Assembly: GCA_964629735.1 (NCBI GenBank)
Contig: CAZVQX010000001.1
Location: 86,984 to 150,983 of the forward strand
Length of the DNA: 64,000 bases
Source: an uncultured Muribaculaceae bacterium
GTDB taxonomy: Bacteria > Bacillota_I > Bacilli_A > RF39 > UBA660
Direction of reading: 5' to 3'
The notes beneath the pieces were generated by a model. The model was not told where the DNA came from, ran no database searches, and was given only the letters and a program-made list of their open reading frames with translations. Below are positions 2,461-55,318 of the stretch, one piece after another (the stretch's first letter is position 1; each line of letters starts with the position of its first letter). A program made the position numbers and the translations under genes.

Positions 2461-2537
2461 GGGTGATTAGCTCAGTTGGTTAGAGCACCTGCCTTACAAG
2501 CAGGGGGTCGTAGGTTCGAGTCCTACATCGCCCACCA
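2461..2537 (+). tRNA. tRNA-Val (anticodon TAC)
   Basis: Cloverleaf folded by hand. Acceptor GGGTGAT/ATCGCCC, anticodon loop CTTACAA, encoded CCA. Confidence 0.85.
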
Positions 2538-2538
2538 T

Positions 2539-2614
<76 letters not shown>

Positions 2615-2616
2615 GT

Positions 2617-2700
2617 GGAGGGATAGCGAAGTGGTCAAACGCGGCAGACTGTAAATCTGTTCCTTCGGGTTCGATGGTTCAAATCCATCTCCCTCCACCA
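2617..2700 (+). tRNA. tRNA-Tyr (GTA), class II with long variable arm
   Basis: Acceptor GGAGGGA/TCCCTCC, anticodon loop ACTGTAAA, variable arm TTCCTTCGGGTTC, CCA. Confidence 0.85.
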
Positions 2701-2714
2701 TTAATATTTGACCT

Positions 2715-2789
2715 TGCCTCGTAGCCAAGCGGTAAGGCACCACACTTTGACTGTGGCATGCGCTAGTTCGAATCTAGCCGAGGCAGCCA
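2715..2789 (+). tRNA. tRNA-Gln (TTG)
   Basis: U1-A72 start typical of Gln, D-arm TAGCCAAGCGGTAAGGC, anticodon loop CTTTGAC, CCA. Confidence 0.85.
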
Positions 2790-2797
2790 TTTTATAT

Positions 2798-2873
2798 GTT
2801 CCGTTAGCTCAGTAGGTAGAGCATTTGACTTTTAATCAAAGGGTCACAGGTTCAAATCCTGTACGGGACACCA
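2798..2873 (+). tRNA. tRNA-Lys (TTT)
   Basis: Acceptor GTTCCGT/ACGGGAC, anticodon loop CTTTTAA, CCA. Confidence 0.85.
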
Positions 2874-2878
2874 CTTAT

Positions 2879-2968
2879 GCCTGAGTGGCGGAATAGGTAG
2901 ACGCACAGGACTTAAAATCCTGCGAGACGCAAAATCTCGTGCCGGTTCAATTCCGGCCTTAGGCACCA
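2879..2968 (+). tRNA. tRNA-Leu (TAA), class II
   Basis: Acceptor GCCTGAG/CTTAGGC, anticodon loop CTTAAAA, long variable arm, CCA. Confidence 0.85.
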
Positions 2969-2988
2969 TTTATAATTAATTTTTAGTT

Positions 2989-3079
2989 GGAGAAATACCC
3001 AAGTCTGGCTGAAGGGGTCGGTCTTGAAAACCGAGAGGTCGGAAACGACGCGGGGGTTCAAATCCCTCTTTCTCCGCCA
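2989..3079 (+). tRNA. tRNA-Ser (TGA), class II
   Basis: Acceptor GGAGAAA/TTTCTCC, anticodon loop CTTGAAA, long variable arm, CCA. Confidence 0.85.
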
Positions 3080-3093
3080 TAAAAATTTAACAT

Positions 3094-3170
<77 letters not shown>

Positions 3171-3173
3171 TAA

Positions 3174-3249
3174 GGTCCCGTGGTGTAGCGGTTAACATGT
3201 CTGCCTGTCACGCAGAAGATCGCGAGTTCAATTCTCGTCGGGACCGCCA
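3174..3249 (+). tRNA. tRNA-Asp (GTC)
   Basis: Acceptor GGTCCCG/CGGGACC, anticodon loop CTGTCAC, CCA. Confidence 0.85.
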
Positions 3250-3254
3250 TTGTT

Positions 3255-3330
<76 letters not shown>

Positions 3331-3345
3331 TTAATATTTGAATAT

Positions 3346-3422
3346 GCGCCCGTAGATCAATTGGATAGATCGTTTGACTACGGATCAAAAGGCTATGGGT
3401 TCGACTCCTATCGGGCGCGCCA
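3346..3422 (+). tRNA. tRNA-Arg (ACG)
   Basis: Acceptor GCGCCCG/CGGGCGC, anticodon loop CTACGGA, CCA. Confidence 0.85.
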
Positions 3423-3424
3423 TT

Positions 3425-3501
3425 CGGGAAATAGCACAACTTGGTAGTGCACTTGGTTTGGGACCAAGGGGTTGCAGGTTCAAATCCTGTTTTCCCGACC
3501 A
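3425..3501 (+). tRNA. tRNA-Pro (TGG)
   Basis: C1-G72, acceptor CGGGAAA/TTTCCCG, anticodon loop TTTGGGA, CCA. Confidence 0.85.
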
Positions 3502-3506
3502 TCTTT

Positions 3507-3583
3507 GGGGAATTAGCTCAGTTGGCTAGAGTACCTGTTTTGCACGCAGGGGGTCAAGGGTTCAAGTCCCTTATTCTCCACCA
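3507..3583 (+). tRNA. tRNA-Ala (TGC)
   Basis: G3:U70 identity pair, anticodon loop TTTGCAC, CCA. Confidence 0.85.
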
Positions 3584-32185: not shown

Positions 32186-33642
32186 TATATATCACCAACC
32201 TTTTGATTTGGTGCTTTTATCATCCTAGCGCCTTTTTTGTTGTATTTCCTCTTAAATGTTAGAAATATATTATTACCTATATTTTGAGTAACTAATGGAG
32301 CATACCCTGATAAAAAAGGCGTTCCAAATGAATTGATACTTGAAATGTTTGCAATAAATAAAAAGCCAACCGCCACAATTCCAACAAATCCAGAACTAGC
32401 AGCCCCGATTAAAAAAATTATTCTCCAAAATCTGGTTGCATAAGCTGCATCTAGATAGGTTAAAATTAACCCACTAATAGATGTCATGGCAATAACAATT
32501 ACCATTATTGGTGAGACAATGCCTGCTGTTACTGCTGCATCACCAAGCACTAGCGCACCAACAATTGATAATGAATTTCCAATTGTACTAGGAGCTCGTA
32601 TGTCCGTCTCCCTTAAAATTTCGAAAGTTAAAATCATTGATAAGGCTTCAAAAATTGCTGAAAAAGGCACACCGTCTCGCTGGGTTGAAAAATTTATTAA
32701 AAGTGCTGGCGGAATAGTTTCGTGATTATATGTTGTCATAGCAATGTAAATAGCTGGCAGAGTTAATGTTGTTAAAAAAGCGATTACTCTTATTATTCTA
32801 TTTACTGTAGCATTTAATGGCCGATTATAAAAATCTTCTGGTGAGTGAAAGAAGTCATTTGCAACAACTGGTATAATTGCTGCAAATGGTGTGTTTTCTA
32901 ATATAATTGCAATTCTACCATTTAAAAGATGTTGTGCAACAAAATCAGGCCTTTCGGTTGTTTGATAATTTGGAAATACATTTTTTTCATTAGCTGAAAT
33001 TAGTTCGATAATTTGTTGAACATCATAAACTGCTTCGATATTGATATTATTTATTTTATCTGTTATTGTGTCAACTATATTTTGGTCAGCTAAATCTTCA
33101 ATATATATAACCGCTGTCTTACTATTCCCTAGTGTTCCAACTGTGCTTTCTTTAATTTTTAATTTTGGTGTTTTTAGTCTTTTTCTAATTAATCCAATAT
33201 TTGTTTGATAATTTTCAATAAATGAATCTTTCGGTCCTTGAATAGTTCGTTCATTTGCGGATTCGACAATCGCGCTACTTAATTTTGATTTTGCTTCGAT
33301 ACCGATGCACTTTTGATTTTTGTCTACTAAAACAATAACAAACCCATTTAATAAATTTGAAATTATTTTACTTTTATCATCAATTATTGTACTTTTATGA
33401 GTAGGAGTGTTTGTATATAAAAAATCGATAAATTTTTTTGATTTTTTATAGTTGATTTCATATGATAAATATTCTAAAATAAAATCATTTATGAAACTGC
33501 TATCTATTAAAGTTTCTATAAAAACAACTGCGACATTGTTTGTGCCAACCATAAAATTTTTAATAATTAAATCTGGTACTTCGTTAAGCGAGTTCTTTAT
33601 TTCAGAAATATTTTGGTAAAGATTTTTACTTATATTATTCAT
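32185..33642 (-). CDS. gerAA: Spore germination protein, GerAA family
   Basis: Soluble N-terminal domain plus a C-terminal five-helix membrane domain typical of GerAA/KA. Confidence 0.8.
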   Translation of the reverse strand: MNNISKNLYQNISEIKNSLNEVPDLIIKNFMVGTNNVAVVFIETLIDSSFINDFILEYLSYEINYKKSKKFIDFLYTNTPTHKSTIIDDKSKIISNLLNGFVIVLVDKNQKCIGIEAKSKLSSAIVESANERTIQGPKDSFIENYQTNIGLIRKRLKTPKLKIKESTVGTLGNSKTAVIYIEDLADQNIVDTITDKINNINIEAVYDVQQIIELISANEKNVFPNYQTTERPDFVAQHLLNGRIAIILENTPFAAIIPVVANDFFHSPEDFYNRPLNATVNRIIRVIAFLTTLTLPAIYIAMTTYNHETIPPALLINFSTQRDGVPFSAIFEALSMILTFEILRETDIRAPSTIGNSLSIVGALVLGDAAVTAGIVSPIMVIVIAMTSISGLILTYLDAAYATRFWRIIFLIGAASSGFVGIVAVGFLFIANISSINSFGTPFLSGYAPLVTQNIGNNIFLTFKRKYNKKGARMIKAPNQKVGDI

Positions 33643-33733
33643 ATTTATCCCTCATTTTATATAATAACCAAAAAACAATAAAATATAAATATTTGAAATT
33701 ATGACAATTAGACATATGTTGTTAATTTTTTTA

Positions 33734-33762
33734 TTGACAATTAATTGACTTAGAGTTATGAT
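33734..33762 (+). promoter_or_regulatory. Sigma-A type promoter of the pilin-like gene
   Basis: TTGACA, 17-nt spacer, TATGAT, about 65 nt upstream of the ATG at 33827. Confidence 0.5.
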
Positions 33763-33826
33763 AGAAGTATATTATATAGGCCCTTGATTTATTTGAGTGT
33801 ATATTATTAAAAGTAGGAGAGATTAT

Positions 33827-35779
33827 ATGTTTAATAAAAAAAATGGTTTTACTTTAATTGAATTGTTAGGGGTTATTGTTGTTATATCATTGATTATGTT
33901 GATTATTACCCCGTTAGCAACAAGAGTGATTAAAGATACTGAGAAAAGGACTTTTGAAAGAAGTATTTATGGCCTTATGAGGGCAGCGGAAGTAGAAAAG
34001 AAAAATATTGAGTTTGATAATCCTAATATAGGAAAAATTATTTTTTCTTATAATAATGGTAATGAAATTTCTAGTTTTAGTGGTGCCAAATTAGATTATA
34101 GTGGTAAAAAACCACATAGTGGTAATTTAGTGATTAGACAAGATGGTAAAATAAATCTATCTTTTTATAAGAATGGTTGGTGCGCGAGTAAGGATTTTGA
34201 CAGCTCTGATGTTATGATTGTACAAGGTTTGGAAGAAGAATGCATATCGGGAATTGTTTTTGCGGTGATTGAATTAAATGGTGAAGAGTTAGTTAATGTT
34301 GAAATTAATTCTGAATATAACGATCCTGGTGTTATTGCTAAAACGAATAAAGGACATGCTATAGAAAATATAATCACAGAAATAACTTATAAAAAAAATA
34401 TTGTGTCTTCTGTAGATGCTTCTAAGTTAGGGACTTATAATATTAAATATTCGGTTGAGTATGAAGGCGTTTTGATAAGTACTGATAGGAAGGTTATTGT
34501 GAGAGATACAGTACCACCAGTTTTAAATGTACCTGCTGATATTGAAATACCAATTTCTTATGTTGATAGTTTTGATGTTTTAAAGGATGTTAGTGCATCG
34601 GATAATAGTTTGGAAATGGTCGATGTAATTGTTAGTGGTAATATAAGTAAATTACCTGGTGAATATATAATTACATATAGTGCAAAAGATTCCTCAGGTA
34701 ATGAGACAATAGTAAAAAGAAGAGTAAAAGTTGTTGATACATCAGCACCATTATTAACTCTATTAGGTCAGAATCCGCAAATAGTAAAAGTAAATGAAGC
34801 GTATATTGAATATGGTGCAACAGCGATTGATGATGTTGATGGTGATATAAGTTCTACAGTAATAAAAACAGGAACGGTTAATAATAAGGTTGTAGGGACA
34901 TATGAAATAACATACAAAGTAACTGATACATCAGGTAATACAACAACAAAAATAAGGACGGTAAAGGTCATTGATGATATAGCCCCAATATTAACCTTAT
35001 TAGGTCAAAATCCATATTCGATGAGGACTGGCCAAGTATATAATGATGCAGGTGCAACTGCGGTTGATAATGTTGATGGTGATATAAGTTCGAAAATTCA
35101 AACAACGGGTACCGTTAATGTTAATATTGAAGGAGTATATAAAATCACATATACTGTTAAGGATAATGCTGGTAATATAGCAACGGCGGTGAGAACTGTT
35201 AACGTAGATAGTACCTTACCGACGATAACTTTTAGTCTGGGTGGTAATGCTACTTATGCGAAAAGTCATAGTACTAAAGTTACAGTTAGCGATTCGATTA
35301 GTGGAATAAATTCTAATAGTTTAAAATATGTTTGGACTCAAAGTACGACTCAACCAAGTGAAGCTGATTTTAAAAATTCTTTTGGCAACGGTGGTACAGT
35401 TTATACTCCAAGTAAAACAACAGGTAGCTATTATCTTTGGGTAATTGCTAAAGATAATGCTGGTAATACTAAAATTCAAAGAAGTAATATCTTTAATATA
35501 GATAATACTCCACCTGTCATAACTTTAAATGGAGCATCGACCATATATTTGGATCTTGACGAATATTTTATTGATAGGGGTGCGACGGCGGTTGATAATA
35601 TAGATGGTGTAATTCCGGCAAATTTATCCCCTTTTAGTGAAGAGGTAAATACACACAAAGAAGGTATATATAAGTTACTTTATACTGCAACTGATAGTAG
35701 TGGGAATACGGCTGAGGCAGTAAGGACTGTATATGTTGGTTGTGTTAGGGATCCTAAAACAGGTTTATGGAATTGTTAA
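33827..35779 (+). CDS. Prepilin-type (type IV pilin-like N-terminal methylation domain) protein with six tandem Ig-like (DUF5011/HYR-like) domains
   Basis: Class-III signal peptide MFNKKNG|FTLIELLGVIVVISLIMLII (Gly-1, Phe+1, Glu+5). Tandem ~80-aa repeats follow, carrying the GATA.D.VDGDIS...G.Y.ITY...D.SGN signature. Start moved to the ATG at 33827 after AGGAGAG. Confidence 0.6.
   Translation: MFNKKNGFTLIELLGVIVVISLIMLIITPLATRVIKDTEKRTFERSIYGLMRAAEVEKKNIEFDNPNIGKIIFSYNNGNEISSFSGAKLDYSGKKPHSGNLVIRQDGKINLSFYKNGWCASKDFDSSDVMIVQGLEEECISGIVFAVIELNGEELVNVEINSEYNDPGVIAKTNKGHAIENIITEITYKKNIVSSVDASKLGTYNIKYSVEYEGVLISTDRKVIVRDTVPPVLNVPADIEIPISYVDSFDVLKDVSASDNSLEMVDVIVSGNISKLPGEYIITYSAKDSSGNETIVKRRVKVVDTSAPLLTLLGQNPQIVKVNEAYIEYGATAIDDVDGDISSTVIKTGTVNNKVVGTYEITYKVTDTSGNTTTKIRTVKVIDDIAPILTLLGQNPYSMRTGQVYNDAGATAVDNVDGDISSKIQTTGTVNVNIEGVYKITYTVKDNAGNIATAVRTVNVDSTLPTITFSLGGNATYAKSHSTKVTVSDSISGINSNSLKYVWTQSTTQPSEADFKNSFGNGGTVYTPSKTTGSYYLWVIAKDNAGNTKIQRSNIFNIDNTPPVITLNGASTIYLDLDEYFIDRGATAVDNIDGVIPANLSPFSEEVNTHKEGIYKLLYTATDSSGNTAEAVRTVYVGCVRDPKTGLWNC
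34304..35776 (+). repeat. Tandem ~240-bp intragenic repeats encoding the Ig-like domains
   Basis: For example, 34741-34980 and 34981-35220 are visibly similar at DNA level. Confidence 0.6.
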
Positions 35780-35796
35780 AATTTAAAAAAATAATA

Positions 35797-35830
35797 GAGG
35801 TTAGTCAAATAAACTAACTTCTTTTTTTGA
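35797..35830 (+). terminator. Rho-independent terminator after the pilin-like gene
   Basis: GAGGTTAGT...ACTAACTTC stem followed by a T-run. Confidence 0.55.
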
Positions 35831-35901
35831 CTTTTTAATTTAATAATTGATATTATTATTTTTTATGTTATAATACTAATGTTAAAAAAGGGGTGTTATT
35901 T

Positions 35902-36999
35902 ATGAGTTTAAAAGCTGGGATTGTTGGTTTGCCTAATGTTGGTAAATCAACTTTATTTAATGCGATTACAAAACAAAATATACTTTCAGCAAACTATCCA
36001 TTTGCCACAATATCGCCTAATATTGGGGTCGTAACAGTGCCGGATGTCCGTTTAAAATTTTTAACGGATTTATGCGATCCGGATAAGGAAGTTCCGACAA
36101 CTTTTGAATTTATAGATATTGCAGGTTTAGTTAAAGGTGCTTCAACTGGTGAAGGTTTGGGTAATCAATTTTTATCCAATATTCGAGAGGTTGATGCGAT
36201 TTGCGAAGTTGTTCGTTGTTTTGATGATTCTAATATTACTCATGTTGAAGGTGATATTGATCCCATTCGTGATATAGAAATTATAAATATTGAATTGATG
36301 TTGTCTGATTTGGAATTAATTATAAACAGAATTAATAGAATTGGTAAAAAGGGTATGATGAGTAAGGATCGTGAACTTTTAAAGGAAATGGCCATTTTAG
36401 AAAAAATAAAGGCTGGTTTAGAAAAAAATATACCTGTTCGTAATTTAAAATTTGAAGAGGAAGATTTGAAAATAATAAAGCATTTTAATTTATTAACATT
36501 TAAACCAATTATTTATATCGCCAATATAAATGAGGATGATTTAACTTTTGAAAACCAGTATGTAAAAACGGTTAAAGAATATGCTGATAAAGAGGGTTCG
36601 CTTGTTATTACATTATGTGCTAAAATCGAAGAAGAATTAAACAGTTTAGATGAAGCAGAACGAATGCAGTTTTTAAAAGAATTAGGAATTGAAGAAAGTG
36701 GCTTAAATAAAATGATAAGGGCAACTTATAATTTATTAGGACTTGCAACCTATTTTACTATCGGTAAGCAAGAAGTGCGTGCTTGGACTTTTAAAAAAGG
36801 AATGAGAGCGCCTGAGTGTGCCGGTATTATTCATTCTGACTTCGAAAAGGGATTTATTCGAGCAGAAGTAATTAGTTATGACGATTTGTTTTTACTTGGA
36901 AGTGAGAAAGCAGCTCGCGAGGCTGGGAAGATGCGTTTAGAAGGAAAGGACTATATTATGCAAGATGGGGATATATGTCATTTTCGCTTTAATGTATAA
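35902..36999 (+). CDS. ychF: Ribosome-binding ATPase YchF
   Basis: GIVGLPNVGKSTLFNAIT plus a TGS domain. Start at the ATG at 35902. Confidence 0.95.
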   Translation: MSLKAGIVGLPNVGKSTLFNAITKQNILSANYPFATISPNIGVVTVPDVRLKFLTDLCDPDKEVPTTFEFIDIAGLVKGASTGEGLGNQFLSNIREVDAICEVVRCFDDSNITHVEGDIDPIRDIEIINIELMLSDLELIINRINRIGKKGMMSKDRELLKEMAILEKIKAGLEKNIPVRNLKFEEEDLKIIKHFNLLTFKPIIYIANINEDDLTFENQYVKTVKEYADKEGSLVITLCAKIEEELNSLDEAERMQFLKELGIEESGLNKMIRATYNLLGLATYFTIGKQEVRAWTFKKGMRAPECAGIIHSDFEKGFIRAEVISYDDLFLLGSEKAAREAGKMRLEGKDYIMQDGDICHFRFNV

Positions 37000-54673: not shown

Positions 54674-55318
54674 ATGAAAATAGAAGTTAAAAATGTATCA
54701 AAAAGTTTTAAGAAAGTACCTATTCTTGAGGATATTAATATTAATTTTGAACCTGGCAACATCTATGCTTTAGTAGGTATAAATGGTAGTGATAAAAGTG
54801 TTTTTTTTAAAACTATTATGTGGTTTTTATAAACCGGACACAGGTGAAATACTAATAGATGGTATTGATATAATAAAAAATGGTGACTTTTCGCCATCAA
54901 CTCGTGCATTACTTGATTCACCATTCTTTTTGTCCGAATTATCTGGGTTAGAAAATTTAAGTCTTTTAGCCAAAGTCAATCTAACTTAACTAAAGAGGAT
55001 ATCAAAACAGCATTAGAAATGGTTAATCTAACAGAAGAAATGAATAAAAACTATATGTTTTACTCTTATGGAATGAAACAAAAACTTGGCATTGTACAAG
55101 TATTAATGGAAAATCCTGATTTAATGATATTTGATGAACCATTTAATGGAATAGAAGAAAAAACAGTTGTTAAATTAAGAAAAATATTTTTGAAGTTGAA
55201 AAAGGAGAAGAAAATAATAATTATTTCTACTCATATTAAAGACGATGTTAAGCTTTTGGCAGATTATATATACCAGTTTGATGATAAAAAGATAACTCTA
55301 ATAGAGAATGTTGAATAG
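54674..55318 (+). pseudogene. ABC transporter ATP-binding protein gene broken by two frameshifts
   Basis: Walker A GINGSxKS at the T8 run (54803-54810), then LLKLLCGFYKPDTGEILIDG in the +1 frame, then the signature-like YSYGMKQKLGI, Walker B LMIFDEP and H-loop STHI in a third frame (track ORFs 54783-54989 and 55019-55318). Confidence 0.55.

Follow-up and report, generated by a model that had tools for sequence, protein, structure and literature searches.

The window, by which we mean the whole 64-kb stretch of DNA analysed here (64,000 nucleotides; GenBank assembly GCA_964629735.1, contig CAZVQX010000001.1, positions 86,984–150,983 of the forward strand), comes from an uncultured Muribaculaceae bacterium that GTDB places in the Bacilli_A lineage RF39. 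The gene under study encodes a 650-residue protein in which a predicted type IV pilin module is followed by six immunoglobulin (Ig)-like domains (Table 1). The mechanical open reading frame (ORF; 33797-35779, plus strand) starts at a GTG codon and has 660 residues; read from the ATG at 33827, the product has 650 and begins MFNKKNGFTLIELLGVIVVISLIMLIITP. The initial annotation of this DNA had described a prepilin signal (MFNKKNG↓FTLIELL) on an ORF of about 650 residues, and both parts of that description hold, with two curated pilin models scoring above their cut-offs at the N terminus.

The same annotation had given the gene its own sigma-A promoter and terminator, both of which can be located at the level of consensus matches. 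The promoter-like site ties for the best in the interval 33400-36100, the other site with 11/12 matches lying upstream of ychF; this AT-rich interval holds 36 promoter-like sites with at least 9/12 matches, against 16.7 expected. The gene order is also as first described: gerAA, gerAC and gerAB run divergently upstream, with a 184-bp intergenic region between gerAA and the pilin gene, and ychF is the next gene downstream, followed by rpsF, ssb, rpsR and rpsJ.

Table 1. Features of the modular pilin gene and its product (positions in the window; pLDDT, predicted local distance difference test; AF2, AlphaFold 2)
Feature	Position	Strand	Basis
SigA/sigma-70-type promoter-like site, TTGACA-17-TATGAT	33734..33762	+	11/12 matches; consensus match only
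Ribosome-binding site, AGGAG	33815..33819	+	Read from sequence, 7 nucleotides ahead of the ATG
Coding sequence, modular type IV pilin	33827..35779	+	ATG at 33827; 650 residues and stop
Leader peptide MFNKKNG, residues 1-7	33827..33847	+	Cleavage predicted after Gly7; N_methyl, TIGR02532, family profile
Alpha-1 helix, residues 8-60	33848..34006	+	AF2 helix 10-58/60; alpha-1N FTLIELLGVIVVISLIMLIITP with Glu+5 and Pro+22
Globular beta-sheet of pilin module, residues 61-144	34007..34258	+	Conserved pair Cys119/Cys139
D1, divergent DUF5011-like beta-sandwich, residues 145-228	34259..34510	+	Weak match to D3/D4/D6 profile (E = 5e-6); low model confidence
D2, DUF5011/HYR-like, residues 229-305	34511..34741	+	Pfam, structure model and domain comparison
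D3, DUF5011, residues 306-383	34742..34975	+	Pfam; pLDDT ~90
D4, DUF5011, residues 384-462	34976..35212	+	Closest paralogue D3 (54% amino acid, 68% nucleotide identity)
D5, Big_13-like beta-sandwich, residues 463-560	35213..35506	+	Big_13 (39.8 bits), Big_3_4, Big_3_3; pLDDT >90
D6, distal DUF5011 domain, residues 561-640	35507..35746	+	Pfam, structure model and domain comparison
C-terminal Cys639...Cys650 segment CVRDPKTGLWNC (C-x10-C tail)	35741..35776	+	Cysteine positions
Intrinsic-terminator-like hairpin with T-run	35796..35829 (scan hit 35796-35822)	+	10 pairs, 3 of them G-C, then TTTTTTT

The pilin module and its Ig-like cargo

The N terminus matches the Pfam family N_methyl at 26.7 bits (cut-off 21.2) and the NCBIfam model TIGR02532 (IV_pilin_GFxxxE) at 21.2 (cut-off 16.3). 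It carries a class III signal, with a short basic leader, Gly at position −1 and Phe at +1, followed by Glu+5 within a hydrophobic stretch of about 21 residues (FTLIELLGVIVVISLIMLIITP); this glutamate (E12) is invariant in the family alignments. Across alignments of 20–25 family N termini, F+1, T+2, E+5 and P+22 do not vary and position −1 is G or A, the proline (P29, mature position 22) being invariant in three family alignments (A1, A2 and A3). The wider family keeps G-1 (sometimes A), F+1, T+2 and E+5 invariant or nearly so, with G/A-F in 143 of 150 relatives. Cys119 and Cys139 are at least 90% conserved among the 150 relatives, and the pair resembles the disulphide that bounds the D-region of pilins.

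Homology to pilins extends beyond the motif. A family profile built from a 20-sequence alignment of N termini aligns with filament pilins of known structure from mature residue 1 on, including Streptococcus sanguinis PilE1 (E = 2e-11), a Geobacter pilin, Thermus PilA5 and PilA4, the Pseudomonas aeruginosa PAK pilin and GspG, and this homology spans about 80 residues. The AlphaFold model of residues 1–147 (pLDDT 81.5) has a helix at residues 10–58 and then a small antiparallel sheet, the arrangement expected of a pilin fold, in which an alpha-1 of about 50 residues packs on an antiparallel beta-sheet. A Foldseek search with this model returned no significant match, the top one being Clostridioides difficile PilW (E = 0.17). 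From the family conservation, the profile matches to solved pilins and the modelled fold, we conclude that the N-terminal ~145 residues are a complete pilin module and not a chance motif.

The remainder of the protein is a domain array. PF16403 (Bact_surface_Ig-like, formerly DUF5011) matches five stretches (E = 2e-75; 249.2 bits against a gathering score of 27), accompanied by overlapping Pfam matches to HYR, DUF4625 and InlK_D3. In the full-length structure model (pLDDT 77 overall, ~90 for D3–D6), six beta-sandwich domains follow the pilin module, so that Pfam annotation and modelling together bear out the earlier count of at least six Ig-like (DUF5011/HYR-like) domains. The fifth differs in type: a Big_13/Big_3-type match covers residues ~480–560, with the motif SLKYVW...YYLWVIAKDNAGN, and a D5-type domain reappears in the family consensus. 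The closest structural neighbours of the array are beads-on-a-string assemblies, namely protocadherin and cadherin ectodomains, the Sap S-layer protein, RTX-adhesin extender repeats and chitinase Ig domains. Cys639 and Cys650 possibly close a disulphide loop at the end of the chain. The protein contains no LPXTG-like sorting signal (its C terminus is ...GCVRDPKTGLWNC), which argues against a sortase-assembled pilin. With N_methyl and a pilin fold followed by five PF16403 domains and one Big_13-like domain, the protein corresponds to a modular pilin as defined by Raynaud et al. 2021.

The repeats had initially been described as tandem DNA repeats of ~240 bp as well, with 34741-34980 and 34981-35220 as the example. 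The period itself is real, in that the domain-coding register is 234–237 nucleotides. However, the two cited intervals share 31% ungapped identity, which is chance level, and Tandem Repeats Finder detects no array within the gene. When domains were compared pairwise using boundaries taken from the structure model, only the D3/D4 pair stood out (68% nucleotide and 54% amino acid identity); the remaining pairs share 25–42% of amino acids and 54–66% of nucleotides, which we take as roughly the background for gapped alignment in such AT-rich DNA. The repeats are old, diverged domain duplications and not a DNA tandem array, and a tandem repeat locus of the contingency or variable-number type was rejected on the same two observations, the empty Tandem Repeats Finder result and a top pair of just 68% nucleotide identity.

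Because the repeats are so diverged, their collapse or expansion in assembly is no concern, and the same 650-residue gene was recovered repeatedly where the initial annotation had worried that re-assembly might change the copy number. NCBI has a record of the identical protein (P0121), identical products were assembled independently in NCBI, ENA and three Logan runs, and 99%-identical copies are present in Logan and ENA assemblies. The window is colinear and gap-free with one of these (L003, from SRR8925797) over 8,229 nucleotides at 99.9% identity. Six of the eight single-nucleotide differences between them fall in the pilin gene (binomial P = 0.003 for at least six of eight), and all six lie in D6, within 109 nucleotides (35535-35643), where they give A570E, I573M, E605L and E606A and one synonymous change. 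Diversifying selection could explain this cluster, as could a small patch of recombination; since a single recombination event could have produced it, we read from it no more than a hint that the variable, ligand-facing end is the distal domain.

A family of cargo pilins and the assembly machinery in the clade

At least 24 of the best 120 whole-protein homologues share the architecture of the window protein; they are 600–1100 residues long and come from metagenome-assembled genomes (MAGs) of uncultured 'Bacilli', 'Mollicutes' and 'Tenericutes'. The pilin module alone is far more widespread: at E<=1e-10 it retrieves 747 representative clusters. The module is N-terminal throughout the best 150 of them, most of which bear C-terminal cargo; lengths range from 114 to 1296 residues, with 26 proteins below 200 residues and 103 of at least 300. 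The cargo in the best 100 includes DUF5011 (11), DUF285 (8), Fib_succ_major (7), BspA-LRR (5) and ConA-like lectin (3) domains, as well as Gly-rich, GLUG, RCC1 and beta-helix types.

We then considered genomic context in 80 related loci, obtained by scanning species-representative genomes with the family N terminus; the genome of the window was not among the matches. Nearly all loci bear record titles that name uncultured Bacilli, Tenericutes or Bacillales MAGs, and a few titles name Muribaculaceae, Vescimonas or Clostridium; the named samples are gut or rumen, and several genomes give more than one locus. The related loci hold 126 prepilin-motif ORFs, 65 of which encode at least 300 residues. 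One locus from a Hadza gut Bacilli MAG (L077:1276-12034, CAKPHH010000006.1) contains five tandem paralogous pilin genes of ~680–690 residues, and the two that were scanned combine an N_methyl signal with BspA-type LRR_5 repeats. Large pilin-leader proteins of this kind are thus common in the clade, and the modular-pilin concept was catalogued in 2021, so the description of the gene as unusual does not stand. It is one member of a large, uncharacterised modular-pilin family in uncultured spore-forming gut Bacilli, and no one-off.

A six-frame search of the 64-kb window with a relative's PilB, PilC and PilD, together with a prepilin regular expression, found no T2SSE, T2SSF or A24 homologue (that is, no ATPase, platform gene or prepilin peptidase) and no other prepilin motif, in agreement with the earlier statement that pilus machinery is absent nearby. 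Assembly genes occur within 10 kb in 2 of the 80 related loci (L041 and L037), or in 3 of 82 when L001 and L002 are counted. A location apart from the machinery is thus what this family normally shows, and the label 'orphan' loses its force.

Where machinery is found in relatives, it has a recurrent arrangement. In a spore-former (L002, GCA_964587565.1), a 1096-residue pilin-DUF5011 homologue lies 3–7 kb from T2SSF, Peptidase_A24 and T2SSE genes and two small pilins. The core order dnaG-rpoD-yqfQ-pilC-pilD-(sigma)-pilB-two pilins-Gate-lonC-mutS is complete in L002 as well as in the contigs of P0214, P0217 and P0220, and mostly present in L110; in the P0233 loci (L096–L104), just pilB, two small pilins, Gate and LonC stand beside holA, and neither pilC nor pilD occurs within 10 kb. 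A24 peptidases are found in clade relatives. The clade ATPase and platform proteins score nearest GspE/PilB and GspF/PilC, below the equivalog cut-offs and above ComGA/ComGB. The machinery itself has distinctive features: an extra 400-residue sigma-70-family gene sits between pilD and pilB in L088, L105 and L108 (~7.2–9.7 kb in each), the T2SSF platform protein is unusually long (598–732 residues), and in L002 (2763-4559) its GspF/PilC homology begins only at about residue 190, behind a Lys-rich N-terminal extension.

Compared with characterized systems, the protein most resembles the S. sanguinis modular pilins PilB (pilin and vWA) and PilC (pilin and lectin). These too start with an IPR012902/N_methyl signal and a small pilin module, after which comes a module that is not specific to pili; they occur in a monoderm (Bacillota) host, and tip display and adhesion have likewise been proposed for them. 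They differ in that their cargo is a single globular vWA or lectin module, whereas that of the window protein is a six-domain Ig-like rod; their genes lie inside a pil operon, whereas the window gene is solitary; and the pilin module of the window protein is of a different subtype (the PilE1 match covers alpha-1 only). Unlike PilB and PilC, the window protein is known from sequence alone. We take InterPro entry IPR032179 to be that of PF16403/DUF5011. Modular pilins were defined by Raynaud et al. 2021 (PMC8179133), who counted more than 1,200 of them in 264 architectures and proposed tip display; their Dataset S1 lists IPR012902-IPR032179 (three proteins) and IPR012902-IPR032179x2 (one protein). 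If IPR032179 is indeed PF16403, the N_methyl-DUF5011 architecture was already catalogued in 2021. Our literature search found no paper joining DUF5011 with pilins.

Other systems are more distant. The large minor pilins of type IVb pili and the type II secretion system (T2SS), namely CofB of enterotoxigenic Escherichia coli, Vibrio cholerae TcpB and GspK, belong to diderms, carry extra domains without a Pfam signature and are encoded within their pilus operons, CofB and TcpB being trimeric initiators; beyond the pilin fold, they have no sequence relationship to the window protein. The competence pilins ComGC, ComGD, ComGE and ComGF share the class III signal and provide the top NCBIfam pilin matches (ComGD, E = 6e-6; ComGC, 1e-5), but all fall far below their equivalog cut-offs (ComGD 26.7/70, ComGC 25.6/75, ComGE 22.4/49, ComGF 19.1/80). 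They are cargo-free proteins of 80–140 residues, and the clade ATPase and platform are not nearest to their partners. The T2SS pseudopilins were likewise rejected on score (GspG 20.3/88.85, GspH 13.8/80). The cargo belongs to the same domain family as DUF5011 arrays in surface proteins, Moritella marina chitinase 60 and Cry22Aa-type Ig domains, and it matches the chitinase structures 4mb3 and 4hmc at 25% identity over ~200 columns (profile E = 1.7e-13). Those non-pilin proteins have Sec signals or enzymatic or S-layer contexts, whereas the window protein has a pilin carrier.

Proposed role and its alternatives

We propose that the protein is a modular type IV pilin, present in low abundance or at the filament tip, whose Ig-domain stalk would serve adhesion; to this reading we assign a probability of roughly 0.65. 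In it, the carrier is the N-terminal 145 residues (class III signal, alpha-1 and the small sheet with its Cys pair) and the cargo the C-terminal ~500-residue six-domain rod. The gene would be transcribed from its own SigA-type promoter, which is a consensus match only, and the product would insert into the membrane via alpha-1N; a PilD-type peptidase would then cut after Gly7 and N-methylate Phe8. A PilB/PilC machine encoded elsewhere would extract the pilin and build it into a filament via alpha-1, a step that we infer because such machinery is seen only in relatives. Since the cargo is bulky, a position at the tip or as a rare subunit is the most likely, as has been proposed for other modular pilins. 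From there a stalk of ~20–25 nm, estimated from typical Ig-domain sizes, would show its distal domain or domains to a ligand, possibly on host mucus, food particles or other microbes, and act as an adhesin. The initial suggestion of a fibre-displayed adhesin thus remains the best reading of a pilin module joined to an Ig-like array.

Several observations weigh against this proposal. The tip location and the adhesive role are suggested only by analogy with other modular pilins, and our literature search found no experimental study of any DUF5011-bearing pilin. The window itself offers no prepilin peptidase, ATPase or platform gene, and among the clusters examined after a search with a relative's T2SSE (P0217, P0233, P0214, P0220 and P0155), none has members from the strain's own samples (SRR8925797, SRR8925798, SRR25722605 and SRR20818732). 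In addition, the A8 tract at 34391-34398, within D1, reads A7 in one copy (L004, SRR8925798), which splits the gene into ORFs of 195 and 458 residues; the sister run SRR8925797 keeps A8. The A7 copy could reflect phase variation or a homopolymer error. Because A8 tracts are common in the window (21 in 64 kb, two of them in the gene), we claim no enrichment of poly-A and set aside a case for phase variation built on it.

The most serious alternative, which we regard as unlikely, is that the protein is processed by PilD but never polymerised: its pilin-like N terminus would serve as an anchor or export signal, and the rod would span the wall and expose its distal domain with no filament involved. 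Six Ig-like domains are, by estimate, long enough for a Gram-positive wall, and ~500 residues of cargo are hard to fit into a filament body. A solitary gene with its own promoter and terminator is in keeping with such an anchor, as is the separation of nearly all related large pilins from the machinery. However, what is conserved over the 747 clusters is the entire pilin module, including the beta-sheet, the Cys pair and G99, and not a transmembrane helix alone. Glu+5 and Pro+22, both invariant here, matter for filament assembly and not for anchoring. Module-only versions of the subtype also exist, the 26 proteins below 200 residues among the best 150 clusters, as would be expected of polymerising subunits.

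A fortuitous prepilin motif on an ordinary surface protein with Ig repeats, exported by Sec or held by a signal anchor, is a very unlikely reading. Surface proteins that are not pilins commonly have DUF5011 arrays, and most whole-protein homologue matches lack N_methyl, but the two curated models above cut-off, the ~80 residues of homology to solved pilins and the near-universal G/A-F in a motif invariant across the family all speak for a genuine pilin N terminus.

The initial annotation had also suggested a spore-surface appendage component. We give scant credence to a spore-surface or appendage component coupled functionally to the divergent gerA germinant-receptor operon. The organism is spore-forming, and the pilin gene and gerAA share their divergent region. 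Yet in two close relatives (L019 and L031; ribosomal proteins 75–88% identical, YchF 68–71%), the modular pilin in the same neighbourhood follows rpsR, bears different cargo and has no adjacent gerA, and in L053 another modular pilin follows rplQ. As the adjacency is not kept in these relatives, it is species-specific, and we read no function into it and reject the link. Moreover, the top promoter match is of the SigA type and not of a sporulation sigma type, Pfam and NCBIfam scans of the protein matched no spore-coat or appendage family, and the family is widespread in loci without nearby sporulation genes.

The probability that the gene is an assembly artefact from collapsed or expanded repeats is negligible: it is a repeat-bearing gene in a MAG and the SRR20818732 contig stops inside it, but no two of its repeats exceed 68% DNA identity, and the independent assemblies and the colinear copy described above agree on it.

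Possible display across the clade and minor observations

Taking the filament-displayed stalk as the preferred reading of the window protein, we tentatively extend it to the clade, an extension that we place somewhat below even odds. In these spore-forming gut Bacilli with small genomes (~1.5 Mb where complete, L009), a single minimal, conserved pilus core (pilC-pilD-pilB and two small pilins) may be a general scaffold that displays a large and fast-evolving set of scattered cargo pilins, of which the window protein would be the DUF5011-rod member. One module subtype with many cargo types and several such genes per genome are consistent with this idea, as are the five-gene pilin-BspA array of L077, the concentration of strain substitutions in D6 and a pilin in L031 that is targeted by a diversity-generating retroelement (DGR).

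The last case lies in a Bacilli MAG syntenic with the window (BRZ_FQ__bin7; L031:9986-13959, CALVIX010000006.1). The genes run in the order pilin, template repeat (TR), bAvd-like gene (70 bits) and reverse transcriptase. The target is a 548-residue modular type IV pilin (N_methyl 31 bits) with a carrier module of the same subtype as that of the window protein and a hypermutated C-terminal domain; in the 116-nucleotide alignment of TR and variable repeat (the latter at L031:11514-11629), there are 16 mismatches, and 16 of 16 fall at TR adenines. In Bacteroides, DGRs are known to diversify adhesins of type V pili, and the scaffold, if real, would be a type IV pilus counterpart of these. A 2024 survey of DGRs (PMC11661182) treats pilin targets of the GspG type as no more than rare oddities, and we found no paper in the literature that pairs 'diversity-generating retroelement' with 'type IV pilin'.

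Taken alone, the window gene leaves existing knowledge unchanged; its worth is as an entry point, and the clade-wide pattern is of more interest. Human and animal guts commonly contain these uncultured Bacilli, and hundreds of cargo pilins on one carrier, together with a conserved minimal assembly core and at least one DGR-targeted case, suggest a testable hypothesis for their attachment and adaptation. The pilin module and the separate Ig domains are defined recombinant targets for binding studies.

Elsewhere in the window, an ABC-transporter ATPase at 54674-55318 appears to be split among three short ORFs (52, 68 and 99 residues, each in another frame) that carry the Walker A, Q-loop and signature/Walker B regions, within a low-GC (23%) segment of small membrane-protein ORFs, which suggests a pseudogene or homopolymer errors. 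At the equivalent site in L053, between rplQ and an SDR gene, there is a 347-residue modular pilin. A cluster of 13 tRNA genes on the plus strand (2461-3580) accounts for a local GC peak of 39%, and the GC skew, positive over nearly all of the window, fits a leading-strand region close to the origin.

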